This document shows positions 6,828-64,000 of a DNA stretch of 64,000 bases, in pieces. Within the stretch, counting starts at the first letter, position 1, and each line of letters starts with the position of its first letter. Origin of the DNA: an uncultured bacterium (lineage in GTDB: Bacteria > Zixibacteria > MSB-5A5 > UBA10806); the NCBI GenBank assembly GCA_965541585.1, contig CBEUCH010000009.1:32001-96000 (forward strand), in the 5' to 3' direction. Both the position numbers and the translations under genes were made by a program. The notes beneath the pieces are model-generated. The model saw only the letters and a program-made list of their open reading frames with translations. It made no database searches and was not told where the DNA came from.

Positions 6828-8333
6828 TTGTTTAAGAAGATCTTAATTGCTAACAGGGGAGAGATAGCGGTAAGAATTATCCGGGCCTGCCGCGATCTCG
6901 ATATCAGGTCGGTGGCTGTCTTCTCCGAGCCGGATAGAACTTCATTGCATGTTCGCCTGGCTGACGAAGCCTACCCGATCGGCCCCGCGCCGTCATCTGA
7001 ATCTTATCTTGTAATCGATAGAATTATCGAGACGGCTAAGAAGGCAAAGGCTGAGGCAATTCATCCCGGTTATGGTTTTCTGGCTGAGAATCCCTTGTTC
7101 GCCAGGGCCTGTGAGGACGCAGGGATTGTATTTATAGGCCCGCCTGCGACCTCGATAGAAATGATGGGCGATAAGATAGCCGCCCGCAAAGCCATGATCA
7201 AAGCCGGCGTGAAGGTGGTACCCGGAGTTGAAAAACCGATAAGCAGTGAAAAGGATGCTATGACCATGGCCGGTAATATCGGCTACCCCGTCCTGATCAA
7301 AGCCGCTGCCGGTGGTGGCGGCAAGGGGATGCGAATCGTTGACGATGATTCGGGGATAAAATCTGCGGTCAGGGGTGCAAAATCTGAGGCTAAATCTGCT
7401 TTCGGCGACGATAGAATCTATATCGAAAAATATCTCCCCCGGCCACGCCATATCGAAATTCAGATGATTGCCGATCTCCACGGAAATTACGTCTATCTCG
7501 GAGAGCGGGAATGCTCCATTCAGAGGCGTCATCAGAAGGTGATTGAGGAGGCCCCCAGCCCGCTTGTCGATGATGCCATGCGCCAGAAGATGGGGCAGGC
7601 TGCCATCGCTGCCGCAAAAGCCGCCGGATATACCAACGCCGGAACAGTCGAGTTTCTCGCCGACGATGACAGGAAGTTTTACTTTCTGGAGATGAATACT
7701 CGTCTGCAAGTGGAGCATCCGGTAACCGAACTTGTGACCGGACTCGATCTTGCCATAGAACAGATCCGCATCGCTACGGGGGAGAAGCTGTCATTTATGC
7801 AAGATGATATCGCGATCGAGGGTTATGCCATAGAATGCCGCATCTATGCCGAGGATCCGAGCGCCGGATTCTTACCTTCAAGCGGACTTCTGCGCTGTTA
7901 CCAGGAGCCGGCCGGCCCGGGTATAAGAGTCGATTCGGGAGTTTACGAGGGGGCCGAAATTTCAGTATATTACGATCCTATGATCTCCAAGCTGCTCTCT
8001 TACGGCAAGGACCGTGGTCAGGCCATCGGCCGCATGAAACGTGCCTTAAATGAATACCGGATATCGGGCGTAACCACCAATATAGAATTTCACAAAACCG
8101 TTCTGGATCATCCCGAATTCGTCGCCGGAAATTTATCTACTCATTTCATCGATGATTACTTCGAAGCTGCGGACGAGCAGCATCAAAAGACAGAGGAAAC
8201 ACTGGCGGTTGCAGCAGCCATGGTGGAGCATAACGCTCGCAACAAGCTCTCCGTTTCGAACATGAAGAAAACTCCCGTCTCCGCCTGGAAGACCTCCTGG
8301 CGTCCGGGCAACAGCGAGCCGGATGACTTATGA
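6828..8333 (+). CDS. accC: Biotin carboxylase, probably of propionyl-CoA carboxylase
   Basis: LIANRGEIA, HPGYGFLAEN, GGGGKGMR, RECSIQRRHQK and EMNTRLQVEH motifs. Confidence 0.95.
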   Translation: MFKKILIANRGEIAVRIIRACRDLDIRSVAVFSEPDRTSLHVRLADEAYPIGPAPSSESYLVIDRIIETAKKAKAEAIHPGYGFLAENPLFARACEDAGIVFIGPPATSIEMMGDKIAARKAMIKAGVKVVPGVEKPISSEKDAMTMAGNIGYPVLIKAAAGGGGKGMRIVDDDSGIKSAVRGAKSEAKSAFGDDRIYIEKYLPRPRHIEIQMIADLHGNYVYLGERECSIQRRHQKVIEEAPSPLVDDAMRQKMGQAAIAAAKAAGYTNAGTVEFLADDDRKFYFLEMNTRLQVEHPVTELVTGLDLAIEQIRIATGEKLSFMQDDIAIEGYAIECRIYAEDPSAGFLPSSGLLRCYQEPAGPGIRVDSGVYEGAEISVYYDPMISKLLSYGKDRGQAIGRMKRALNEYRISGVTTNIEFHKTVLDHPEFVAGNLSTHFIDDYFEAADEQHQKTEETLAVAAAMVEHNARNKLSVSNMKKTPVSAWKTSWRPGNSEPDDL

Positions 8334-8830
8334 AATACCAAGTCAAAATAGGCGAGAGAAAGTACGAGGTCGGCATCGACGGCGACGGGCCCGGTGTCAC
8401 CGTCAACGGCCGGCGTTTGAATGTCGATCTGAGAAGTCTCAAAGGCGGCAAGCTCCATTCCATTCTGGCCGATAACGAAAATTTCGAGTTCGAGCTGGAG
8501 CGCTCCAACGGTGGGTTCAATCTCTGGCACGGGAGAGGGCAGGTCTTCGTCGAGGTCACCGACGAGAAAACCGAACGGCTTAAAAGACTCATGGGCGGTG
8601 CCGAAACCGGCAGAAAACAGGCCGTCCTGAGAGCCGCCATGCCCGGCCTGGTGGTTAAAGTAGAGGTTGAACCGGGGCAGAGAATCATGAAGGGAGACGG
8701 CCTTTTAATCATCGAGGCCATGAAGATGGAAAACGAGATCAAAGCCCAGAGCCCCGGCGTGGTCAATGAGATCAAAGTCAAACCCGGCCAGCCAGTTGAG
8801 AAAAACCAGGTGCTGGTTGTGTTTGAATAA
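8330..8830 (+). CDS. Biotin carboxyl carrier protein (BT domain plus biotinyl domain)
   Basis: EAMKMEN biotinylation motif; overlaps the biotin carboxylase stop. Confidence 0.93.
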   Translation: MKYQVKIGERKYEVGIDGDGPGVTVNGRRLNVDLRSLKGGKLHSILADNENFEFELERSNGGFNLWHGRGQVFVEVTDEKTERLKRLMGGAETGRKQAVLRAAMPGLVVKVEVEPGQRIMKGDGLLIIEAMKMENEIKAQSPGVVNEIKVKPGQPVEKNQVLVVFE

Positions 8831-10014: not shown

Positions 10015-11601
10015 GTGCTGAATATGAAACAGAAAAAAACATCGTCCGGAATATCTACAAAGCGCATCTACAATAAATCTGATTCTGAAAATCGTGTGCA
10101 TCCGGAAGCCGATTCCGGCCAATATCCATTCACGCGGGGCATTTATCCCGAAATGTACCGTCAGAGGCTCTGGACCATGCGCCAGTATGCAGGCTATGGG
10201 ACGGCTAGGCAATCCAATGAACGTTATCGCTACCTGCTCTCGCAGGGTCAGACAGGCCTTTCAGTGGCCTTCGATCTGCCGACACAGATCGGCTACGATT
10301 CCGATCACGCGCTGGCCGCCGGGGAGGTCGGCAAAACAGGCGTGGCAATAGATTCGCTCGCTGATATGGAGATCCTGCTCGATAAGATTCCCTTAGATCA
10401 GGTCTCGACATCCATGACCATCAATGCCACCGCTTTTGTTCTCCTGGCACTGTACATTGCCGTTGCCAAAAAGCAGAATGTCCCCCTGGGCAAATTAAAG
10501 GGGACTATTCAGAACGATATTCTCAAGGAATATATTGCGCGCGGGACCTATATCTTCCCGCCCGAACCATCGCTTCGGCTCGTTACGGACATATTCAGAT
10601 TTTGTCAGGGCAGCATGCCGAACTGGAATACAATTTCAATTTCCGGTTATCATATCCGCGAGGCAGGGTCGACCGCCGCCCAGGAAGCGGCATTCACCCT
10701 TGCTGACGGTATCTGCTATGTGGAGCATGCTCTTAAGGCCGGTCTGGATATAGATGATTTCGCGCCCAGAGTTTCTTTCTTTTTCAATGCTCACAACGAT
10801 CTTTTCGAGGAGGTGGCAAAGTTCCGAGCCGCTCGATATGTCTGGGCCAAGATCATCAGGGAACGGTTCAAGGCCAGAGATGATCGTTCCTGTATGCTGC
10901 GTTTTCATACACAGACAGCGGGATCGACACTGACTGCACAACAACCCGAAAACAATATCGCCCGCGTCACTATCCAGGCTTTAGCCGCGGTTCTGGGCGG
11001 AACGCAGTCTTTGCATACCAATTCGATGGATGAGGCGCTGGCCTTACCCTCTGAAAAAAGCGCAACCATCGCCCTGCGCACTCAACAGATAATAGCGCAT
11101 GAGTCCATGGTCGGCGCTACAGTCGATCCTTTGGGCGGATCATATTATATTGAATATTTGACATCTGAGATGATAAAGAAAATCGAGGACTACCTCAGTG
11201 AGATTGATAAAATCGGCGGGGCGCTCAAGGCTGTCGAACAGGGGTATTTCCAGTTGGAAATACAGAAGGCCGCTTACGAATATCAGAAGGATGTCGAAAC
11301 GAAACGGCGAATAGTCGTTGGCGTTAACGATTTCACCGGAGAATCTGAGGATCCGCAAAACGTGCTCAAGGTGGACCCGCAACTGGAAAAAAGTCAGATC
11401 GGATTCACAAATTCAGTCAGAGAGAAAAGAGATTCTGTGCTGGCGGATAATCGGCTGAAAGAATTAAGAGAGGCGGCGCATTCGGAACAGAATATTATTC
11501 CCCTCGTAGTTAAATGTGTGGAGTCCATGGTAACACTGGGCGAGATCTGTGCAGTGCTTCGCGAGGTATGGGGCGAATATAAGGAGAACGTCGTATTATG
11601 A
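10015..11601 (+). CDS. Methylmalonyl-CoA mutase, substrate-binding (large) subunit
   Basis: [14 protein letters not shown] (Tyr), [11 protein letters not shown] (Arg), SISGYHIRE and QSLHTN; no B12-binding domain. Confidence 0.95.
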
Positions 11602-12011
11602 AGATACTCGGCCTGCATCATATAGGTATCGCCGTCGATGATCTAAAAAATTATTCATCGATCTTCGAAAAACTGTTTGGTCTGAAAACCGGGCCGGTGG
11701 AAACCAATCCGGAAAACCGGGCCAGCCTTTCATTTCTCGATATTCAAAACAGCAAGCTGGAGTTTATTGAACCCGTGGATGATGATTCTTCGATCGCCGG
11801 ATTCCTTTCGAAGCGCGGGCCGGGGATTCATCATCTCTGCCTTTTAGTTGATGATATTCAGGCAGCTATCGATGAGATGAAATCAAAGAATGTTAAGATG
11901 ATCGATGACAAGCCGCGCCAGGGTGCGGGCGGTTCTCTTATAGCATTTATCCATCCCGAATCAACCGGAGGGATATTGATAGAACTAAAACAGGAAAAAA
12001 CGGGGCATTAA
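11598..12011 (+). CDS. mce: Methylmalonyl-CoA epimerase
   Basis: VOC fold motifs [25 protein letters not shown]; translationally coupled to the mutase. Confidence 0.95.
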
Positions 12012-13538: not shown

Positions 13539-13567
13539 TTGACAAAAATATCAACTATTGCTAATAA
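13539..13567 (+). promoter_or_regulatory. Sigma70-type promoter for the methyltransferase
   Basis: TTGACA-N17-TAATAA with an extended -10 TG. Confidence 0.5.
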
Positions 13568-13589
13568 AAGGTCTTCGGAGGATAATCTC

Positions 13590-14324
13590 TTGGGACCTTT
13601 GAAGGAAAAGACCGCATCATCAATTGGAGCGGATGAGTATTCCCGCCTCAGCGGGGAGTATTTCAACTCTCAGTATGCGGAGGAGGAGTTCTACTGGGGC
13701 GAGCAGCCGAATTTGCTGGTGCCGTTGGTAAGCAGCCACTTAGAGCCTGGCTCCCGGGTGCTTGTAATAGGCTGCGGAGAGGGGCGCGATGCGCTTTTTC
13801 TGGCGCGGTTCGGCTTCGACGTCATTGCTACAGATATCGCTTCTAATGGTCTCGAGAAGGCCGGACGCCTGGCCGAAGGAAATGGCTGCAAGCTTCAGCT
13901 TATAAATCTGGATGCCCACCGGTCGCATGACCATCTGGGCGTTTTCGACGGCCTTTTGTCTATGAATGTCATACAACTCTTGAATCCTGACATGATAACA
14001 GGGCGGTTAGCATACTTTCAATCGCGGGTTAGATCGGGTGGAATAGTCGCCATTCAAGTCTTTACCGTTGACGATCCCAATTACCAGGATTGGCTGAAAT
14101 CCGGAATTCCACCGAGAGGATCACTGACCTTTGAGCACCCGACGCGCGGGTATCCTATCAGATTTTTCGCAAAAGGAGAACTGGCATCTCATTTTGAAGG
14201 CTGGGAGTTTATTCATTATTACGAGGGCTTATTGTGGGATAAGCCTCACGGCATCCAGAGCGGTTTCCACCAGCATGGGTTTGCGCAGATCATCGCCAGG
14301 AAAAAATCGGATACCTGGTCATAG
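13590..14324 (+). CDS. Class I SAM-dependent methyltransferase (TehB-like)
   Basis: FYWGEQP and motif I VLVIGCGEGRDA; His-rich C-terminus; TTG 13590 follows GGAGG. Confidence 0.85.
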   Translation: MGPLKEKTASSIGADEYSRLSGEYFNSQYAEEEFYWGEQPNLLVPLVSSHLEPGSRVLVIGCGEGRDALFLARFGFDVIATDIASNGLEKAGRLAEGNGCKLQLINLDAHRSHDHLGVFDGLLSMNVIQLLNPDMITGRLAYFQSRVRSGGIVAIQVFTVDDPNYQDWLKSGIPPRGSLTFEHPTRGYPIRFFAKGELASHFEGWEFIHYYEGLLWDKPHGIQSGFHQHGFAQIIARKKSDTWS

Positions 14325-14448
14325 GTTAAACATTTCAAATCTCTGAATTGATAGACTTATATTTCTTTTCATAAGAAGGAACTTATAGATACCTGGCGCG
14401 ATTAGAGTTTTAGGAGACTCGCAAGGAGGTCACGGTTGAAAGGGAGTC

Positions 14449-14775
14449 ATGTTTTTAAAGAGGCTTTTCGAACCATACAGGATTGAGATCGTCGAGGAAA
14501 GCAACCTCGGTTCCGGCCTGTCAAGGGCAGTCTATACTATTAAAGGTCTCCCATGCTTTATATGAGCCGGTTTGACCGGCTCCGGTCTGGAGCGGCAACC
14601 GGGAGTCAGGGAGGCCGAAATCTCTGATGATATGGCGGTTATTATCTTCGCTCCCGGAGAAACCAGTATCGATCGAATTTCTAATTATCTATCAAAATTC
14701 GGAGTCAAGGGAAAATTGAATATGACCTTGGAGCGCTTATATCGATTATTCCGGCCACATAAGAATCATAAATGA
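14449..14775 (+). CDS. Putative selenocysteine-containing HMA-like protein (CxxU)
   Basis: RBS AGGGAG, ATG 14449, then ...YTIKGLPCFI-TGA(14563)-AGLTGSGLERQPGVREAEIS..., in frame with ORF 14572-14775. A SECIS-like hairpin follows the TGA. Confidence 0.8.
14563..14602 (+). promoter_or_regulatory. Bacterial SECIS element candidate
   Basis: Upper stem GCTCC/GGAGC with loop GGTCT at +22 to +26 from the T of TGA; lower stem CCGGTT/AACCGG. Confidence 0.75.
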
Positions 14776-14790
14776 AATCGTTTTATTAAA

Positions 14791-15303
14791 TTATTTTGCA
14801 GGTGTAAGTTTAATAATCGGCTGACCAGGCTTTACCAGATCGCCCGGCCCGAAGTGAATGGATTTCACCTCCCCGTCGGTGGGCGATTTTATTTCGTTTT
14901 CCATCTTCATCGATTCCACAATCACCAGAGATTGTTTAGCCCTGACTTTTTCCCCTTGCTTTACCAGTACCTTGACCACCTTGCCGGGCATCGGAGTGCT
15001 GATTTCGTCCCCGGACACAAACTCCACGGCGGCTCCGGCGAAACTGTTCCTGTCGTCTTTTACCTTATCCAGCTTCACCGCCCGGCCACCGATATGGACA
15101 TAAAGGCTACTCTCGGATTCCGCTATGTAGGCGATAATGTTTTTGCCGTTGAATAGAATCGAGAAGCAATTCGGCGAAACGAGGGTAGCATTAAATCGAT
15201 ATTCCTTTTCTCCGGATGAGAATATAAAGCTATCGTCCTTGCCTTCATCTGCCTGGAAATTGATAGTATGTATGTTCCCGTTATGCGAAAACTCGAATTC
15301 CAT
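14791..15303 (-). CDS. Biotin carboxyl carrier protein of 3-methylcrotonyl-CoA carboxylase
   Basis: TPMPGKV and ESMKMEN motifs. Confidence 0.92.
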   Translation of the reverse strand: MEFEFSHNGNIHTINFQADEGKDDSFIFSSGEKEYRFNATLVSPNCFSILFNGKNIIAYIAESESSLYVHIGGRAVKLDKVKDDRNSFAGAAVEFVSGDEISTPMPGKVVKVLVKQGEKVRAKQSLVIVESMKMENEIKSPTDGEVKSIHFGPGDLVKPGQPIIKLTPAK

Positions 15304-15334
15304 CGTTAATTAATCCCGGATTATCGTGTTGATG

Positions 15335-16834
15335 TTACCCGCCTGCAATCTGCCAATCGCCCAGAGTTTGCCAAGGAGATGACATTTCCTCGGCTCTCGA
15401 TAGCGATACAGCCTTTCTGTCATTCGTGCCTGAATAAACGGCCGCCGCCATCAGAGCCTGGTTCACGATCTCTTCCCCTGAAGACGGTTTCCAGTCGGGC
15501 ATATGTTTTTGCAGAAAATCTGTATGAGTATTACCGGCTAAAAATTCCTTATGGTTTATAATATCCCTGAGAATTTCGATATCGGTCTTTATACCCAGGA
15601 TGGGAAAATCATTTAAAGCAGTAATCATTCTGCGGCAGCAAATGTCTCTGGTGGGCGCCCAGGCTATCAGCTTGGAGAGTATCGGGTCATAGAAGACTGA
15701 TACCTCGCAGCCCGTGAAAATGCCGCTATCATGGCGGATCCCCGGCCCCGACGGTTCCTTCATGAATAGTATCCTGCCGGCCGACGGTAGAAAATTGTTT
15801 TCGGGATCCTCGGCATAGATGCGGCATTCGATGGCATGGCCCTTCTGGCTGATCTCATCCCGGGAAAGCCAGAGCTTTTCTCCCGAGGCTATCCGCAATT
15901 GCGCATGAACCAGATCGACACCGCAAACCAGCTCGGTAACCGGATGCTCTACCTGCAGACGAGCGTTGACCTCCAGAAAGTAGAAATTCTTATTCTCATC
16001 CAACAGGAATTCGACCGTACCGGCGTTCGAATATCCCGATAGCTCGACAACCTTCAGAGCCGTTTCGCCCATTCTTTTTCTCAATTCGTCATCGAGAGCG
16101 GTGGACGGGCTTTCCTCGACTATCTTCTGATGCCTTCTCTGTATCGAACATTCTCTCTCAAAAAGATGAACAGAATTTCCGTGTTTGTCCGCCAGAATCT
16201 GAAATTCGACATGCCGGGGCCGTTCGATATATTTTTCGAGATATATGGATGGATCGCCGAATGCGGCTTTGGCCTCACGCATACCGGCCTCAACTGCGTT
16301 TATCAGTTTGCTCTTCGAGTTTATGACCCGCATTCCCTTGCCGCCGCCGCCTGCCGATGCTTTCAGCAATACCGGAAATCCGATTTTTTGCGCCTCGGCC
16401 AGGCATTCGTTCGGATCGGTGCTTTTCTTCTTCATGCCCGGAATTAGCGGGATACCGGCCTTTCCGGTGATCGCCCGGGAGGCAACTTTATCCCCCACCA
16501 GTTTCAGGGCCCTTGAGTCGGGGCCGACGAAGACGATGCCTTCCTTTTCGCAGCGCTCGGCAAAACGATAATTCTCTGCAAGAAAGCCATATCCGGGGTG
16601 TATAGCTTCCGCCCCGGTTTCTTTAGCAGCCGCAATAACGGCATCAAAATTCAAATAGCTATCCTGGGGTGGCGCCTCGCCTATGCAGACCGCCTCGTCT
16701 GCCATCTGAACATGCAAGGAGTTTCTGTCTATGGTAGAATAAACGGCAACGGAATCGATTCCCAATTCTCTGCAGGCACGTATTATTCTAACGGCTATTT
16801 CGCCGCGATTAGCTATCAGGACTTTCTTGAACAT
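15335..16834 (-). CDS. Biotin carboxylase subunit of 3-methylcrotonyl-CoA carboxylase
   Basis: ANRGEIA, GGGGKGMR, RECSIQRRHQK and EVNARLQVEH motifs; operon context. Confidence 0.93.
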   Translation of the reverse strand: MFKKVLIANRGEIAVRIIRACRELGIDSVAVYSTIDRNSLHVQMADEAVCIGEAPPQDSYLNFDAVIAAAKETGAEAIHPGYGFLAENYRFAERCEKEGIVFVGPDSRALKLVGDKVASRAITGKAGIPLIPGMKKKSTDPNECLAEAQKIGFPVLLKASAGGGGKGMRVINSKSKLINAVEAGMREAKAAFGDPSIYLEKYIERPRHVEFQILADKHGNSVHLFERECSIQRRHQKIVEESPSTALDDELRKRMGETALKVVELSGYSNAGTVEFLLDENKNFYFLEVNARLQVEHPVTELVCGVDLVHAQLRIASGEKLWLSRDEISQKGHAIECRIYAEDPENNFLPSAGRILFMKEPSGPGIRHDSGIFTGCEVSVFYDPILSKLIAWAPTRDICCRRMITALNDFPILGIKTDIEILRDIINHKEFLAGNTHTDFLQKHMPDWKPSSGEEIVNQALMAAAVYSGTNDRKAVSLSRAEEMSSPWQTLGDWQIAGG

Positions 16835-16897
16835 TTTTTAAAGAATCTTTCTGTCCGCCGGGTCTCCGTACCTGTTGGTAAAGTCACGTTTCTTAGT

Positions 16898-17025
16898 TGT
16901 CGGCAGACCCCGCGTTTCGCGGGGCGGACCTACATTTTCGCCAGTTTATTTGTCAGGTTTTTCTCTCGCTTCGCTCATTCGGAACCCGACCTACATTTTG
17001 TCCGCGAGTCAGGGCTTGCCCTGAC
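16898..17025 (-). repeat. Cluster of GTAG-type REP-like palindromes
   Basis: Two units read TGTAGGTC...GACA on the minus strand (16898-16934, 16951-16995), plus a hairpin GTCAGGGCTTGCCCTGAC. Confidence 0.7.
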
Positions 17026-17033
17026 CGCCTTTA

Positions 17034-17831
17034 TCAATCCTCATACCAATTAGGTTTACGTTTTTCAAAAAAGGCTTTTATCCCTTCCTGGCCCTCGTCG
17101 CCCATTCTAAGTTTGGCTATGATCTCGGCAGTGTAATTTCCGACCTCGGATTCGGGCATCGTGGGCACATTCAAAAGTAACTGTTTGCACCAGGATAAAG
17201 CTTTCGGGCCGCTGGATAATAACTGTTGCACTCTCGTTTCCACTGCTTCATCTAGCTTCCCATCGCGTACGACCTCGTTGACAAGACCGGCGGCTCTCGC
17301 TTTTTCAGCAGTAAGCCTCTCGCCCGTCAGAAAATACTCCCTGCAATTCTTATCTCCCATGCGCCGGATTATGTAGGGGGAGATACAGGCCGGAATAAGT
17401 CCCAGCTTGACCTCGCTCAAACTGAAAACGGCCTTTTCTGAGGCAATGACAAGATCGCAGACCGCCACCAGACCACAACCGCCACCGATGGCAGCGCCAT
17501 TGACTCGTGCAATCGTTGGCAGCGGACAGCTAAACATAAGATGAAACATATCCGCCAGATTTTTGGAGTCCTCCAGGTTTTCCTCATAAGTGTAATCGAG
17601 AACATCCTTCATCCAGTGCAGATCGGCGCCGGCGCAGAATGTTGATCCATCGCCAGTCAATACCACGACTCTCAGATCGTCTCGAGAGTTTATTTCCTTA
17701 AACAGATCCGCTAACTCGGATATCATAACATTGTTGAAGGCATTTCTCACATCCGGGCGGCTCAAGGTTATCCATGCGACCCGTTTTCGGATTTCTACCT
17801 TCAGGGTTTTATAATCGTTGGATAACGCCAT
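17034..17831 (-). CDS. Methylglutaconyl-CoA hydratase (crotonase family, LiuC-like)
   Basis: RPDVRNAFN, FCAGADLHWM, AIGGG and SEVKLGLIPA motifs; adjacent to MCC beta. Confidence 0.88.
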   Translation of the reverse strand: MALSNDYKTLKVEIRKRVAWITLSRPDVRNAFNNVMISELADLFKEINSRDDLRVVVLTGDGSTFCAGADLHWMKDVLDYTYEENLEDSKNLADMFHLMFSCPLPTIARVNGAAIGGGCGLVAVCDLVIASEKAVFSLSEVKLGLIPACISPYIIRRMGDKNCREYFLTGERLTAEKARAAGLVNEVVRDGKLDEAVETRVQQLLSSGPKALSWCKQLLLNVPTMPESEVGNYTAEIIAKLRMGDEGQEGIKAFFEKRKPNWYED

Positions 17832-17852
17832 AACGCTTACTTGATTCCGAAC

Positions 17853-19460
17853 CTACATCCTGAATACGCCGTACCGCTGATCGGGGATGGGAGCGTTTAA
17901 CGATAATGAAATGGCCAGCCCCAGAACGGTGCGTGTGTCGAGCGGATCAATAATACCGTCGTCCCAGACCCGGGCCGTGCTGAAATAGGGAGAGCCCTCT
18001 TGTTCATATTTTTCCAGTATGGGAGCCAGAAACTCTTTTTCTTCGTTCTTCGTCATCGATTTACCATCGGCTTCGAGACCTTTCTTCTTTACCATTAGAA
18101 GGACGTTGGCTGCCTGCTCGCCTCCCATGACGCTTATTTTGGCGCTTGGCCACATCCAGAGGAAACGCGGCTCGTAGCCTCTGCCGCACATGGCATAATT
18201 CCCGGCGCCGTATGAGCCGCCGATTATAATCGTGAATTTCGGGACGTCGGCGTTAGCTACGGCATGCACCATCTTAGCGCCATTGCGAGCGATGCCACCA
18301 TGCTCATAATCCTTGCCGACGATAAAACCGGTGATGTTCTGCAGGAATAACAGGGGGATCTTTCTCATTGTGCAAAGCTCGATAAAATGTGCGCCTTTAA
18401 CAGCGCTTTCCGAAAATAAAACACCGTTATTGCCGAGTATTCCCACCAGGTAGCCCATGATGCGCGCGAAACCGCAGACTAACGTCTGCCCATAAAGTTC
18501 TTTGAATTCATGAAACTCACTGTTATCGACGATGCGGGCTATGATCTCCCTGATCTCAAACTGCTTTCTAATATCTCTCGAAACAATGCCGTAGAGTTCA
18601 GCCGGATCATACTTTGGGTCAACAGGCTCGTTTCGCCCGAGATCGAACTTTCGAGGCTTATCGAGACACTGAATGATATTCCTCGTTATCTGCAGCGCAT
18701 GCTTGTCGTTTTGTGCGTAATGATCGGCCACACCGGATATACGACAATGAACATCAGCTCCTCCGAGTTCCTCGGCAGTGACATCGGCACCGGTTGCCGC
18801 CTTGACCAGGGGAGGGCCACCGATAAAGATCGTTCCCTGTTTGCGTACTATAACCGCTTCGTCGCTCATGGCCGGGACATAGGCCCCTCCGGCCGTGCAT
18901 GACCCCATTACAACCGCTATCTGCGGAATGCCTTGGGCGGATAGTCGGGCTTGATTGTAAAAAATGCTTCCGAAATGCCCTTTATCGGGAAAGACGTCCT
19001 TCTGATGAGGCAGGAATACGCCTCCCGAATCAACCAGATAAACGCATGGCAGCCGATTCCGCAAGGCGATCTCCTGGGCCCGGGTATGCTTTTTGATTGT
19101 CATCGGGAGATAGGTTCCGCCCTTGACCGTGGCATCATTGGCCACCACCAGCACTTCTCTGCCATTAACCACTCCCACGCCTGTTATAACGCCGGCAGAG
19201 GGAGCCTCGTTGTCATACATATCGAGAGCCGCCAACCCGGAGAATTCCAGGAATGGCGTATTTTTGTCGAATAGGTTTTTTATTCTATCCCGGGTCAGGA
19301 GTTTATTTCTCTTAAGATGTTTCTGGCGCGCCTTCTCAGGCCCACCCTTATATATCTCGGCCAGGCGTTCCTTGAGTAAGGCAACCCCTTTTTCCATATG
19401 CTTGCTGTTTTTCCGGAACTCTTCGCTCTTGGTATCGACCGTCGACTCTATCTGAAACAC
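17853..19460 (-). CDS. 3-methylcrotonyl-CoA carboxylase beta (carboxyltransferase, LiuB-like)
   Basis: [42 protein letters not shown] and a terminal GVFRM. Confidence 0.95.
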
Positions 19461-19489
19461 AAAACGTCCCTGTTACGCAATACGATTAC

Positions 19490-19879
19490 TTAAGCCGGAA
19501 CACATTTATATCCATAATTGAGAATGCCACCATGGCCCTCCTGCTGTATCCTGCGGAATTCGATCTTAACCGGCAATCCGATCTTCATATCCTCCGGCTC
19601 ACAATCCACTACCTGGCAGAGGATCTTCACGTCATCGCCGACATTTACAATGGCAACCGCATAAGGAGACTGATCCGTAAACTGGCTGGGGGCAACCCTG
19701 ATAATCGTGAATGCCTCGACCTTACCCTTATCTCCTATTTGTGTTTCATCAAACTCTCGCGACTTGCATGCAGGACAGATCTGCCTTGGAGGGAACAACA
19801 CCTTGCCGCATTTCTTGCATTTTACAGCCTCGAGACGATATCTTTGAGGCATCTCTCTCCAGTATCTCGGCCCCGACAT
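19490..19879 (-). CDS. DUF35 zinc-ribbon/OB-fold scaffold protein
   Basis: CKKCG...PPRQICPAC followed by an OB fold and a terminal YGYK. Confidence 0.93.
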   Translation of the reverse strand: MSGPRYWREMPQRYRLEAVKCKKCGKVLFPPRQICPACKSREFDETQIGDKGKVEAFTIIRVAPSQFTDQSPYAVAIVNVGDDVKILCQVVDCEPEDMKIGLPVKIEFRRIQQEGHGGILNYGYKCVPA

Positions 19880-19880
19880 T

Positions 19881-21041
19881 TTACACTCCCTCCAGAATAT
19901 GGACTACGCTGCTGGCGCCGCTTCCGCCCATGTTCTGTGCCAATCCGATATCGGCTTTTTTCAATTGTCGGCCGTTATCGGCCTCACCACGAATCTGCTT
20001 GGTAAGCTCTACTATCTGTGCCACTCCGGTAGCGCCTACAGGATGTCCTTTTGATTTCAATCCGCCGCTGGCATTAATCGGAATATCACCGTCCAGCGCC
20101 GTTTTACCGTCGGCCGTGGCGGGGCCGCCTTTGCCCCTGTCTGCAAATCCCAGAGCTTCTATCACCATAATCTCGGCGATTGTGAAACAATCATGAACCT
20201 CGGCAAAATCTATATCCGATGTTTTCTTGCCGGCCATTTTGAGAGCCTCTTCCGCCGCCACCGCGGTTGATTTCAGAAAGGATAGATCCTCACGGTGAGC
20301 AAGCTGAATGGTATCTGATGCATGTCCGGAACCGGTGATTTTTACCAGGCGTTTTTTAGTTAGTTTTTTGGCCTTGTCCATGGAACATAGAATAACCGCG
20401 GCCGAACCGTCGGTGATGGGAGAGCAATCCAGGAGAGTAAGTGGATCAGAAACCATAACTGCATTCTTAACCTGATCGGCTGTTACTTTCATTCTGTATT
20501 GTGCCAGCGGATTCATAGATCCGTTATGATGGTTCTTAACGGCCACCTGCGCCAGGTGATCTCGCGTGGTGCCGTATTTATTCATATGGTGATTAGCCAT
20601 CATTGCATACAGCCCGGGAAACGTCACCCCGTTGTAAACCTCGTATTCCTGTTCGGCGGCCGTGGCCAGGGCAAACGTCGCTTTGCCGCCATCGACATCG
20701 GTCATTTTTTCCACGCCGGTGACCATCACTGTATCGGCCATACCGGATGCCACGTGCATATATCCGGTTCTGAACGCCAGTCCGCCGGAAGCGCAGGCCG
20801 ATTCGATCCTGATACCCGGAGTCGGGCAGAGGCCCGCCATGTCGGGCCCCATGGAACCCAGATGTTCCTGATCGCAGAAAAGCCCCGATGACATACAGCC
20901 TATATACATGGCATCGACCTTGTCTATTCCTGCATCATCGAGAGCCAGAAGAGCGCTTTCGACCAGTAGATCGCGGATAGAATATTCCCAGATCTCGCCC
21001 CATTTGTTCATACCAATACCGATTACCGCGACTTCTCTCAT
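19881..21041 (-). CDS. Archaeal/SCP2-type acetyl-CoA acetyltransferase (thiolase)
   Basis: [28 protein letters not shown] and QNMGG motifs. Confidence 0.93.
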
Positions 21042-21077
21042 CTATATTCCTCCGGGAATCCCATTCATCAATAATCC

Positions 21078-22130
21078 TTACTCACCCCTCATCCTGATTT
21101 TGCCCCGGTACTTGGAATAGGTGCCGTAATCAAGATATTTTCTGTTGTCCGATTCCAGCATGTCCCTGGTCTTCGCCGCCTTGTCCTGCACCTCTTTTAT
21201 CCGGTCGGTCACCTTCCAGATAAAACCATCGCTACCGGCCCCGGAGCCATAGGAGACCATGAAGACCCAATCTCCCGGCCTGGCGACATCGAGTATCGCC
21301 GTAAGGCCCATGGGCGACGAGCCCGAATATGTATTGCCCAGAAGCGGACATAACCATCCGGTTTCTATCTGCTCTTTTGTGAAACCGAGTTTCTTGCCGA
21401 CGGTCATGGGGAATTTGCCATTCGGCTGGTGGAAGACCGCATAAGCAAAATCCTCGGGCTTCATGCCGGATTTATCCAATATCGCCCTGGCGCAGCCCGT
21501 GATGTGTTTAAAATAGGCCGGCTCTCCCGTGAAACGGGAGGCATGGCTGGGATAAAACTGATGTTCGCGTCGCCAGAAATCGGGTGTGTCAGTCATGAAT
21601 GAATGAGTGTAATGACACTCTGCGATAATATTCTCTTTGCCGAATATGAACGATGCCGCCCCCGCCGATGCGGAGTACTCCAGGGCATCACCGGGCGCTC
21701 CCTGCGAAGTATCTGCGCCGACACCGACTCCATACTCTATCTCACCGGCCTTAACCAGGCTCATGGCCACGAACATGCCCTCTGACCCGGCTTTGCAGGC
21801 GAATTCGAAATCGGCGCAATGGCAATCCGGGACCGCTCCGATAGCCTCCGCCAGGGTCGTTCCGCTCGGCTTGACCGCATACGGATGTGATTCCGAACCG
21901 ATATATACAGCGCCGATCTTCCGGGGATCGATGCCTGCACGCTTGATAGCGTGCCTGGTAGCCTCTACGGACATGGTTATCGTGTCCTGGTCCGGACCCG
22001 GAACAGATTTTTCCTGGAGCATCAAACCTCTTTTGTAGCTGGGGGCATCGGCGCCCCAGACCTTGGCGATCTCCTCGACTTTGATCCTGTTTCGTGGTAT
22101 GTATGCACCGTAACCAATTATTCCCGCCAT
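21078..22130 (-). CDS. Archaeal-type hydroxymethylglutaryl-CoA synthase
   Basis: GIIGYGAYIP, GSESHPYAVKP (Glu), EFACKAG (Cys), FHQPNGKFP (His), GNTYSGS and SYGSGAGSD. Confidence 0.93.
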   Translation of the reverse strand: MAGIIGYGAYIPRNRIKVEEIAKVWGADAPSYKRGLMLQEKSVPGPDQDTITMSVEATRHAIKRAGIDPRKIGAVYIGSESHPYAVKPSGTTLAEAIGAVPDCHCADFEFACKAGSEGMFVAMSLVKAGEIEYGVGVGADTSQGAPGDALEYSASAGAASFIFGKENIIAECHYTHSFMTDTPDFWRREHQFYPSHASRFTGEPAYFKHITGCARAILDKSGMKPEDFAYAVFHQPNGKFPMTVGKKLGFTKEQIETGWLCPLLGNTYSGSSPMGLTAILDVARPGDWVFMVSYGSGAGSDGFIWKVTDRIKEVQDKAAKTRDMLESDNRKYLDYGTYSKYRGKIRMRGE

Positions 22131-22466
22131 AAAAAATCCTCGCTCGCTGGATCTATTTTGAAAGCTGTTTGCATCTCGTTTTCATAGTTTTAGCAATCTA
22201 AGATTTGGGTATCTTAATGTCAACTTATTTGCCTTAAAATCAGTTGGATGCCCAGTATATTCATCTGTTGCGAGCGCCCAAGCTCACTTCCTCCATCTAA
22301 TGCTAAAATCGATTATTATATTTTTCAGGTGGAAGCTAGGGACATACCGGGGATTGTACAATGAAAGCAGCAACGGAATACTAAAATCGAATTGATTATT
22401 GCTCGATCAAACCATATATTTGCGCCCGGTGATCTATCGGAAAAGAATCTTTTTTTAGGGTAGATA

Positions 22467-23237
22467 ATGAAAAAAATCACAAATCCGTATCTGATGCAGG
22501 GAATATTGTCGATCATTATCGTGACAGTTTCATGTGGATTATTCGCTCCTTCCGAAGATGCGTATCTGAAAAACTATACCAAGGCCCACGAGTACATGGT
22601 TCAAAACCTGCCTCATAAAGCGATTCCTTTTTATAAAAAGGCGTTAAAGCAAAAAGAAGATTTTACATCGGCCTATCAGGAGATTGCCGTGTGCCTGCAG
22701 ATGATAGGGGAGAACGACAGCGCCATAGTCTATTATGAGGGCGCCATTGTATACAATCCCCGCAATGTCGATGCCTACCAGTCCATAGGCAATATTTACT
22801 ATATGCAGGGGAATTATGATGATGCCCTCATAAGGTATGACCAGGCCACCGAGGTCGATGATCTCTACCCCCGTTCATACAACAACATGGCCACCATCTG
22901 GCTTTCACGCGGAAACTATGAGAAAGCAAAATATTACTATGAACTGGCAATTACCGTCGATGCCACCTATCCGCGTGCTTATTACGGTCTGGGTATAGTT
23001 GCCCTGAAGCAGGGAGATATAGAGGAAGCGGAAGCGAAGTTCTTGGACGCGGTCAAGGTTGGCTCCATGCCGGAGGCGATCTATATGCTGGGGCAGTTGA
23101 ATTTCGAAAAGAGGACTTACAATAAGGCGAAAAACTGGTTCGAGAGATATCTTGAAAAAGAACCGATTGGCGAATGGGCCGAAAAGGCGAAAGATATGCT
23201 GCTTATTATGAAGCAGAGCAATGCGGATAATGAATAA
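22467..23237 (+). CDS. Tetratricopeptide-repeat lipoprotein
   Basis: Lipobox VSCG followed by several TPR units. Confidence 0.85.
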   Translation: MKKITNPYLMQGILSIIIVTVSCGLFAPSEDAYLKNYTKAHEYMVQNLPHKAIPFYKKALKQKEDFTSAYQEIAVCLQMIGENDSAIVYYEGAIVYNPRNVDAYQSIGNIYYMQGNYDDALIRYDQATEVDDLYPRSYNNMATIWLSRGNYEKAKYYYELAITVDATYPRAYYGLGIVALKQGDIEEAEAKFLDAVKVGSMPEAIYMLGQLNFEKRTYNKAKNWFERYLEKEPIGEWAEKAKDMLLIMKQSNADNE

Positions 23238-23244
23238 CAAAGAA

Positions 23245-23468
23245 GTAGGTCGGGTTTATGGTGTGCCCGCGGGCTGTGAAACCCGACAAAAAAGCACAGC
23301 CTGCGTGTCGCCTTTATTGCGACCGCTCTTGGTGCGGTCATAACAAGTTATGACACGCAGGATATCATTTCGCAAGACGAAGGAGAGAATAAGTAGAGAT
23401 GTAGGTCGGGAGCCCTGCGCTCCCGACAAAGAAGGATAGCCTGTGTGTCACCTTTATTGTGATCGCTG
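23245..23468 (+). repeat. Two direct-repeat REP-like units
   Basis: GTAGGTCGGG...CCCGACAAA followed by a shared tail AGCCTGYGTGTCRCCTTTATTGYGAYCGCT, at 23245 and 23401. Confidence 0.75.
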
Positions 23469-23496
23469 AGGTGGGATTAGCAGTTTAAAAGAAGAT

Positions 23497-23856
23497 TTGG
23501 CTGGTAGGGATATTTGTATGGATGTAAGTCGATACGTGAGACCTTTTAGAAAAATATATTATTACTTAACTATCTTCACTTTTTGTATGCTTTTTTTAAC
23601 TGGATTAGTGACCTTGATATCAAATAGTATGGAAAGTTGGGTTGATTTTATAGATGCTATGGTTTTAACGCCTCTCACTGCCGGATTCCATTTGTTACTT
23701 ATCATGATTCTGTTGAGTATTGCCGGTATTATTATCGATTGGGCTCGGAAACTAAGATATTTTCTAATTATAATCGGATGCCTTACCTCAATGGTTTTTC
23801 TATTTTTGTATTCAGTATTTTTTTATTTTTTAAATGTAGGCGGATTTTATCAATAG
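23497..23856 (+). CDS. AT-rich hypothetical membrane protein
   Basis: Three hydrophobic segments; visibly more AT-rich than its flanks; start may be ATG 23518. Confidence 0.55.
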   Translation: MAGRDICMDVSRYVRPFRKIYYYLTIFTFCMLFLTGLVTLISNSMESWVDFIDAMVLTPLTAGFHLLLIMILLSIAGIIIDWARKLRYFLIIIGCLTSMVFLFLYSVFFYFLNVGGFYQ

Positions 23857-23864
23857 ATAATAAA

Positions 23865-23891
23865 TGTAGGTTGGCAGTTTATCTGCTGACA
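23865..23891 (+). repeat. REP-like palindrome
   Basis: TGTAGGTTGGCAG-TTTAT-CTGCTGACA. Confidence 0.55.
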
Positions 23892-23929
23892 GCTGAGACT
23901 AAATAATCTGGTGCTAAGGAGGAAATAAG

Positions 23930-25114
23930 ATGGCTGGTGAAGCGGTAATATTATCGGCATGCAGATCGGCGGTCGGGAATTTTTTAGGCGGGCTGTCATC
24001 TTTTACCGCGCCGCAGCTGGGCGCATTGGCTATAAAGGAGGCAGTCAGACGGGCCGGCATCAATGTCGACGATATAGACGAGGTCATCATGGGGCAGGTG
24101 GTCCAGGGTGGCTCCAATCAGGCCCCCGGCCGCCAGGCGGCGGTTCATGGCGGCATACCGCCGACGGTTCCAGCCATGACCATCAATAAAGTCTGCGGCT
24201 CCGGTCTTAAGGCAGTGATGCTGTCGGCCCAGGCTATCAAGGCCGGGGACGGTCATCTGTTTGTCGCCGGAGGGCAGGAATCCATGTCCAATACCCCGTA
24301 TGCTCTTCATGGCGCCAGGGGAGGCTTGAAGTTCGGCCATAAAAAGCTGGTCGATCTCATGATCACCGACGGCCTCTGGGATTCGTTTAACGATTTCCAC
24401 ATGGGCGTCGCCGCCGAGTACACCGCCGAGAAATCAAAGTTGACACGCGAGGAACTCGACGAGTACGCCTTCAACTCACAGATGAAAGCCTCCAGGGCTG
24501 TCGAGGAAGGTAAGCTCGAGGCGGAGATTTTCCCCATTGAGATACCACAGCGAAAGGGCGACCCGATAATTTTCGATACGGACGAGGCTCCCAGGGCTGA
24601 AACCACCGTGGAGAAACTTGCCAAACTGAAACCAGCATTTCAAAAAGATGGAGTTGTTACTGCAGGCAATGCGCCTGGGCTAAACGATGGCTCAGCTGCC
24701 GTGGTGGTGTCGTCACTTGAATACGCTGAAGAAAAAGGTCATAAACCTTTGGCCAGAATCATCGCCTACGCCGCCGCCGGCACCGATCCCAGGGATCTGT
24801 TCTACGCGCCGATCTATGCAGTTCAAAAACTGATGAACAAGATGGGCGTCGATATCAACCACTGGGATTTAATCGAAGCTAACGAGGCCTTTGCGGCCCA
24901 GGCGATGGCCGACGGTAGAGAACTCGGCTGGGATTGGTCGCGGGTCAATGTCAACGGCGGAGCCATCGCGCTGGGACATCCCATCGGGGCCACCGGGGCC
25001 AAGATCCTTGCGACGCTAATCTACGCCCTAAAGGACCGCGATCTTAAGAAAGGGATGGTGACCCTCTGTCTCGGTGGCGGAAATGCCGTGGCCATGGCGA
25101 TTGAGATGATGTAA
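23930..25114 (+). CDS. atoB: Acetyl-CoA C-acetyltransferase (classical thiolase)
   Basis: [19 protein letters not shown] and LCLGGG motifs. Confidence 0.93.
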
Positions 25115-63655: not shown

Positions 63656-64000
63656 AAATTAGCGGAAATGGAATGGATAACACACGATCTTTCACCCCCA
63701 TATCCAAAGGGACGATGATTTCCCTTTTTAGGATTTTCGAGAAGATTGAGATAGATATGAGGGTATGTGGACAGGTAGGTCTTTGTAGTTTAGAGATAAA
63801 GCTACCAGCGTATATAAGTCAAGTTGGTTGATTTTTTTGTTGCATTATGGACTAAACAGGGCTATGTTTTATACGATGAATTGACACAGTTTATTGTGCC
63901 ATTGTTACCGGAAAGATTATCGTTAAATGAATCAGAGAGAGTTTGAAGGCAACACCCGTTCATTCGTTCCCATATCCAACGGGACCATAATCTTCCACTA

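Follow-up and report, generated by a model that had tools for sequence, protein, structure and literature searches.

Positions 14449-14775 of the window, by which is meant the whole 64,000-nucleotide stretch of DNA analysed here, very probably form one gene encoding one 108-residue protein that gene callers cut in two, and selenocysteine (Sec) is almost certainly inserted at its codon 39, in what is predicted to be a SelB-dependent manner. The protein is HMA-like but divergent: its motif is G(L/I)PCxxU, it lacks a signal peptide, and it is predicted to carry amphipathic end helices and an additional N-terminal strand. HMA-type selenoproteins are already catalogued; the family represented in the window is real, lineage-restricted and, as far as searched, uncatalogued. 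The predicted fold, taken together with the chemistry of CopZ/Atx1, tilts the balance modestly towards a role as a cytoplasmic chaperone or buffer for Cu(I) or another soft metal.

Gene structure and conservation of the in-frame TGA

The first-pass annotation had proposed a ribosome-binding site, an ATG at 14449, a TGA at 14563 and a 108-aa read-through product. The letters show a Shine-Dalgarno-like tract as the putative ribosome-binding site and bear out the ATG and the TGA, and translation with TGA read as U gives the 108 aa (Table 1). The TGA (14563-14565) is codon 39 in frame with the ATG, the frame closes at a terminal TGA (14773-14775), and the peptide reads G-L-P-C36-F-I-U39 followed by LERQPGVREAEI. 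The only entry for the gene in the list of open reading frames is, as had been stated, a 67-aa piece with a TTG start (14572-14775). Contigs from 4 DNA runs cover the locus, one of them end to end.

Table 1. Features of the HMA-like gene, its upstream neighbour and the kinase-TPR genes (window positions unless a contig is given).
Feature	Position	Strand	Basis
Full gene, 108 aa, HMA-like selenoprotein candidate	14449..14775	+	Orthologues share start and end region; dN/dS < 1 on both sides of TGA
Purine-rich Shine-Dalgarno-like tract GAAAGGGAG	14438..14446	+	Sequence; also purine-rich in G001 and G002; putative function
N-terminal extension, residues 1-21: short amphipathic helix and extra beta-strand	14449..14511	+	Both AlphaFold2 models; hydrophobic moment 0.6; pLDDT of residues 1-10 57-58
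HMA-like core beta-alpha-beta-beta-alpha, residues about 22-87	14512..14709	+	Profile matches to CopA, CopZ and ATP7 domains; structure match
Cys36 codon, first residue of CxxU	14554..14556	+	Invariant in 6 genome members; same column as the first Cys in HMA domains of CopA
In-frame TGA, predicted Sec39	14563..14565	+	TGA in 6/6 family members; same column as the second Cys of the HMA CxxC
Possible complete SECIS stem, bulged	14567..14602	+	39-nt folds; lower stem partly conserved, weaker in G002; putative
Apical SECIS-like hairpin GCTCC-GGTCT-GGAGC, G23/U24 in loop	14579..14593	+	Folding; also present in G002 and, with loop AGTCT, in G001; synonymous divergence reduced
C-terminal segment, residues 85-108: conserved G-x-K-G and a basic, amphipathic helix	14701..14772	+	G85, K87 and G88 nearly invariant in 16 rows; moment 0.55-0.82; low model confidence
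Class I SAM methyltransferase, TehB-like, upstream neighbour	13539..14324	+	Pfam; synteny in 4/6 carriers; candidate member of the same system
Ser/Thr kinase-TPR genes	63927-64000 (continues to G000:C9:98617; L071); G000:C25:24123 (L068)		

Upstream of the gene, a strong AAGGAGG and, 6 nt later, a TTG open a 16-codon out-of-frame ORF over the gene start (14423-14486); this TTG is absent as TTG in G001 and G002. About 70 nt 5' of the ATG, the element AGAAGGAAC(T/A)TAT(A/G)GA (14374-14389), which we take to be ECF-promoter-like, is kept in 3 same-genus genomes amid drifting DNA. It is present in a single copy (AGAAGGAAC(T/A)TAT) in the source genome (G000), leaving no regulon to read, and scans of the locus for sigma-70 promoters and terminators gave results near chance.

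A search with the single protein, covering 61 genomes, returned 4 relatives with one internal TGA each, as well as 2 weak ATPase HMA matches. A 5-row profile search, covering 285 genomes of the phylum, gave some match in 136 of them and strong full-length matches (E <= 2e-38) in 6, five of these six members having been rows of the search profile. The carriers (G000, G001, G002, G004, G049 and G078) belong to 3 genera in 2 families, and the proteins of the last five share 69, 69, 41, 29 and 30% identity, respectively, with the window protein. All six carriers found among the 285 genomes have TGA at the codon-39 column, which aligns with a Cys of HMA domains, and the first motif position is TGC or TGT in every one of them. 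The weaker profile matches (E >= 5e-10) were, where examined, ordinary Cys HMA domains.

As judged from substitution patterns, the codons before and after the TGA are both under purifying selection. In 4 within-genus pairs, which are not independent and offer few sites, dN/dS was 0.09-0.20 upstream of the TGA and 0.09-0.36 downstream of the hairpin. Within genera, pN was 0.07-0.23 against a pS of 0.42-0.71 on both sides of the TGA, and synonymous divergence dropped from this pS of 0.42-0.71 to 0.09-0.17 in the 13 codons of the hairpin (the same 4 pairs, again with few sites). Conservation in the relatives therefore does not stop at the TGA: both halves are conserved, with dN/dS below 1.

Selenocysteine machinery and the hairpin after the TGA

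The source genome, which is 98% complete, encodes the whole of the machinery that the first-pass annotation had proposed to look for: selA, the SelB winged-helix domain, tRNA-Sec (selC) and selD each score above their curated cut-offs, and all lie on one contig, with an in-frame TGA in selD itself. The other 5 carriers have selA and selD. Since selA is present in 264 of the 285 phylum genomes and selC in 144 of the 151 searched, co-occurrence with the machinery is necessary but not discriminating, and thus uninformative as a test. The proposed Sec at codon 39 gains its support from the TGA in the same column of all six members, the full machinery and the conservation on both sides.

The stem GCTCC (14579-14583)/GGAGC (14589-14593) with its loop GGTCT (14584-14588) is present where it had been described, the loop occupying +22 to +26 with the U of UGA as +1. 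Because of this placement, G23 and U24 of the window sit at the positions contacted by SelB in the E. coli fdhF SECIS, as numbered in a review (PMC8659212). By that numbering, the two elements have in common an in-ORF hairpin after the UGA whose apical loop contains G23 and U24; the window family differs in its bulged base at position 16, which is variable (G, C or A; G16 in the window), and in having no U17. The description of the element as fdhF-like held for the 3 genomes of the source genus but not for the 3 distant members, in which a GGA loop lies 5 nt further on.

Folding of the region after the TGA preserved the apical stem, which had a pair probability of 0.97 in the 39-nt fold and was retained in the 63-nt centroid, whereas the 63-nt minimum-free-energy structure took an alternative hairpin. 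The 63-nt stretch folded no better than its shuffles, and the z-score (-0.73, not significant) was discarded as evidence for a SECIS.

Hairpins were also assessed with a GT-loop rule (stem of at least 5 pairs, dG <= -4, loop start at +17 to +32, GT within the first three loop bases), which was drawn up post hoc, the target having already been seen among the candidates. The background fractions obtained with it (7 of 929 ordinary TGA gene stops, 23 of 1599 TAA/TAG stops and 128 of 9422 Cys codons) flatter the target, because the rule was set after the target was seen. When the same peptide was re-coded synonymously 2000 times, 0.2% of the sequences satisfied this post hoc rule, and 6% matched the hairpin when the loop condition was dropped. 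Three of the six family members, including the window, satisfy it; G004, G049 and G078 fail and have instead a GGA-loop hairpin at +27, matched by 5-13% of re-codings. The selD hairpin of G049 does have a GGT loop, unlike the HMA-like gene of the same genome.

A screen of 36,159 in-frame TGAs by coding potential was filtered to 33 and yielded ten candidates that belong to selenoprotein types already known: two HdrA, a DUF3179 protein, two thioredoxin-like proteins, a TlpA-like protein with a T9SS tail, SelW, OS_HP2, an Omp28-like protein with GGGU and SelD, one of the thioredoxin-like assignments having a UxxC motif as its sole basis and several candidate scores falling below cut-offs. Their sites are G000:C4:96079, C4:101236, C12:6063, C8:14312, C19:16072, C16:77902, C5:164085, C16:83803, C17:73405 and C11:72826. 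Eight of these ten, and the target, comply with the post hoc GT-loop rule (N-G-U loop hairpin).

Resemblance to HMA domains and to known selenoproteins

The window protein has no Pfam match, and 2 of the 5 aligned members match HMA (PF00403). The read-through genes of G049 and G078 score 28.9 and 32.3 bits against a gathering score of 24.8. The 5-member profile matches chains of CopA, ATP7, CopZ and MerP, and both Cys columns are in register, so that C36 and U39 align with the two Cys of the CopA CxxC, the ligand positions of the beta1-alpha1 loop. The earlier assignment to an HMA domain with the TGA on the second Cys thus stands in its Cys column, by profile, and in its predicted fold, but not in its motif, which is G-L-P-C rather than G-M-x-C. 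G-L/I-P-C occurs in all 8 full-length family rows, and Pro precedes the Cys in none of the 39 HMA domains sampled for comparison. A tree of 47 HMA domains, which came with long-branch warnings, placed the 8 family rows on one side of a branch (99/93).

Two AlphaFold2 models, built from 5 and 16 rows, had pLDDT values of 75 and 78, and both comprise a short helix, a strand at 11-21, a strand at 24-32, a helix, two strands and a long helix at 74-100. Residues 23-87 of the first model superpose on the HMA domain 6a71_A with Z 10.0 and an rmsd of 1.8 over 65 aligned residues; the second gave Z 7.2 against HMA, with helix 1 partly unwound and the YAM domain of YajR tying at 7.8. Foldseek returned no match at E <= 0.001. 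Strand 4 of the HMA fold was built in neither model, confidence being 66-68 in that region and below 70 beyond residue 80, and the models suggest that the extra N-terminal strand may replace it. Subunit L of RNA polymerase also gave a match (Z 7.2, rmsd 4.2), which reflects the order beta-beta-alpha-beta-beta-alpha and was not taken as homology.

Both ends of the protein are basic and amphipathic, with hydrophobic moments across 8 rows of 0.36-0.73 (N-terminal) and 0.55-0.82 (C-terminal), and the N-terminal FLKRLF presumably resembles MinD-type membrane-targeting helices. The 108 residues contain no membrane segment and, by eye, no signal peptide.

The predicted core fold and the two ligand positions are shared with the metallochaperones CopZ, Atx1 and MerP and with the N-terminal HMA domains of P1B ATPases (PF00403; 1p6t, 2rml, 1cpz, 6a71, 6ff1), and the family is small and stand-alone, as is CopZ. 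It departs from the CopZ type in that the predicted Sec replaces the second Cys and G(L/I)PC stands in place of GM(T/H)C, in its length of 104-113 aa, and in the extra N-terminal strand and end helices alongside a fourth strand that neither model builds. On the CopZ models NF033794, NF033795, NF047957 and TIGR00003 the best member reached 26.6-39.1 bits, below the cut-offs of 62-95; where the cut-off is 91-95, it reached 35-39 bits.

The top NCBIfam match of all 5 members scanned was NF041115 (UxxU_metal_bind), likewise a small HMA-type selenoprotein; the window family is longer and has CxxU, not UxxU. Scores of 25.7 (window), 41.7 and 50.8 bits compare with a cut-off of 95, which is reached in none of the 285 phylum genomes, and lie below those of ordinary Cys HMA domains of the phylum (up to 79.6). 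Sec in a heavy-metal CxxC-type motif is also shared with the MerT/CopZ fusion-like selenoprotein NF045683, with MerT (C/SxxU) and with the E1-E2 ATPase (UxxC), but these are membrane transporters or fusions, unlike the window protein; one of the 5 members, not the window protein, touches the NF045683 model (E 4.5e-4).

The available parts of Table 1 of PMC13188914, which covers 119 families, include a UxxU metal-binding protein, a C/SxxU-type MerT and a UxxC-type ATPase, and contain no free CxxU HMA protein of the present build, with which the available parts of PMC9312934 agree. The parts of PMC13326102 and PMC1976440 that were available add nothing further on the family. No description of it was found in the literature searched, although the list of Haft and Tolstoy 2025 or that of BSepDB (Table S2) could include it.

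Proposed function

SelB with Sec-tRNA would bind the GU-loop hairpin after the UGA and insert Sec at codon 39. Alignment and predicted fold suggest that the product would be a stand-alone, signal-less, basic protein of 108 aa, in which an HMA-like core displays Cys36-Phe-Ile-Sec39 in the beta1-alpha1 loop. A soft metal, Cu(I) foremost, would be held between thiolate and selenolate, the protein serving in the cytoplasm as chaperone or buffer, and might be delivered to, or received from, the N-terminal HMA domains of the genome's P1B ATPases. More speculatively, the amphipathic end helices may anchor the protein to the membrane or mediate dimerisation. The fullest version of this scheme, a Sec-only HMA family in which an N-terminal strand stands in for strand 4, a C-terminal helix acts as inner-membrane tether or dimer helix and a selenolate Cu(I) chaperone serves P1B ATPases where no ordinary free CopZ was found, is unlikely as a whole; if true, such a rewired, Sec-only chaperone would be a natural test of what Sec adds to metal trafficking.

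The main rival, which we hold to be possible if not probable, retains a real selenoprotein and makes C36 and U39 a selenenyl-sulfide redox pair, as a switch or small reductase, on an HMA scaffold. CxxU is a common redox motif, and the CxxU/UxxC proteins catalogued so far are mostly regarded as redox proteins (PMC13188914). An invariant Pro precedes the first Cys and the x-x residues are hydrophobic, unlike the GM(T/H/S)C of the 39 other HMA domains, which points in the same direction, as does the next gene on the same strand in G049 and G078, which encodes an AhpC/TSA redoxin with CxxC. This neighbour is found, however, in only 2 of the 6 carriers, both of one genus, and the fold is HMA-like, not thioredoxin-like.

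Genomic context and distribution

The gene directly upstream, on the same strand, encodes a methyltransferase in G000, G001, G002 and G004 (about 25 nt away in G004), with TehB as its best Pfam match. This arrangement would suit a two-gene detoxification unit, in which the HMA-like protein carries a metalloid or metal (Te, Se, As or Hg) to the methyltransferase or accepts its methyl group. Such a unit is improbable: 7 of the 11 genomes of the same taxonomic family with the methyltransferase have no HMA-like gene behind it, nor was a hidden divergent copy found there; G049 and G078 have the HMA-like gene but only weak generic methyltransferase matches, and no orthologue was found in them; and the TehB match is partial, with a score near those of generic methyltransferase models.

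CopZ is typically encoded beside a copper P1B ATPase. The window gene, unlike CopZ, is not, the ATPases of the source genome lying on other contigs. That genome has six Pfam HMA matches, which belong to two P1B ATPases, a membrane fusion of MerT-MerP-like type and a lipoprotein-like protein; consequently no ordinary free CopZ was found in it. Among the neighbourhoods of the carriers there was no conserved copper or mercury gene; in G049 a cation-efflux gene lies about 4 kb from the HMA-like gene. Since there is no conserved neighbour, and since most same-family non-carriers have no free CopZ either, the context gives no function.

Downstream in the window, a convergent biotin-carboxylase block follows the gene. 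By sequence likeness, 6828-8830, 10015-12011 and 14791-25114 form an acyl-CoA metabolism gene cluster, which we take to hold two biotin carboxylase/carrier pairs (carrier by Pfam), a methylmalonyl-CoA mutase and an epimerase-like protein, an enoyl-CoA hydratase-like protein and a carboxyltransferase, with what is presumably an archaeal-type OB-fold/thiolase/HMG-CoA-synthase-like trio at 19490-22130.

The distribution of the family is patchy, with 6 carriers against 264 genomes with selA among the 285. Given this patchiness, and given that most same-family non-carriers are also without a small free HMA protein, the HMA-like Sec gene is dispensable and no simple replacement for CopZ. A distribution complementary to that of CopZ was considered and not seen.

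Database forms and ordinary readings of codon 39

The family is stored in databases as 38-aa pieces ending before the site or as 50-70-aa pieces starting after it, and 3 full-length proteins (P0060, P0061 and P0075) have W at the site and come from contigs of 593-782 bases. Database calls thus break at codon 39 or give W there, as expected from the earlier suggestion that gene callers would split the protein.

A phmmer search of 1.84 billion representatives found no Cys orthologue or fusion (55 matches, of which the only close one was the 38-aa piece P0006). Word-indexed searches at near, shorter and longer lengths (5 of 576, 8 of 14 and 3 of 8000 candidates) gave no Cys form or fusion, the 3 longer candidates being ATPases. 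Two contig scans, with 2 loci each, gave no Cys orthologue either; L014, L015 and L050 duplicate G002 and G001, and L051 was rejected as a chance frame. These searches are limited in sensitivity, and their outcome is to be read as 'not found'.

That the TGA is a true stop, so that the locus would be a nonsense allele or contain two separate ORFs of 38 and 67 aa, would fit the storage of the two pieces as separate proteins, the unremarkable folding energy of the region and the failure to find a Cys orthologue. It is nevertheless highly improbable: the same TGA is kept at 29% protein identity, both halves are under in-frame purifying selection, the domain fold spans the codon, and G004, G049 and G078 do not retain the downstream TTG as a start. 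Reading of the TGA as Trp or another ordinary residue, to which the W of P0060, P0061 and P0075 might point, is barely credible, as all three come from those short contigs, the cluster mate of P0075 on a longer contig was called as a piece starting after the site (which points to a code-4 gene call), 929 long predicted genes of the source genome end in TGA, and W would destroy the CxxC-type pair.

Implications and other candidates

The role of Sec in metal-binding loops still needs study, according to the available parts of a 2026 review (PMC13188914), and such loops have so far been catalogued only from prediction. A small soluble protein with a single CxxU would readily lend itself to a comparison of Sec and Cys in the binding and transfer of Cu(I) or Hg(II). 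The family also adds a case that annotation split or mistranslated every time it was seen, and it helps to characterise the GU-loop SECIS in a phylum where selA is present in 264 of the 285 genomes. Its reach is modest, extending to 6 of the 285 genomes and a dozen or so database fragments, with no pathway link.

Two Ser/Thr kinase-TPR genes (Table 1) each have an in-frame TGA that completes a CxxU about 70 residues before the end and is accompanied by a GGTC-loop hairpin. Among 30 loci examined in relatives, these two included, 15 have C-(H/F)-W-U-G-P and the other 15 have no Cys pair there; 13 of the 15 with the motif pass the post hoc GT-loop rule, and no selenoprotein model matched the CxxU genes. 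A further in-frame TGA in a long frame (G000:C22:12595; L073) has a CGTGC-loop hairpin and no nearby Cys, and may be a nonsense allele or another selenoprotein candidate.
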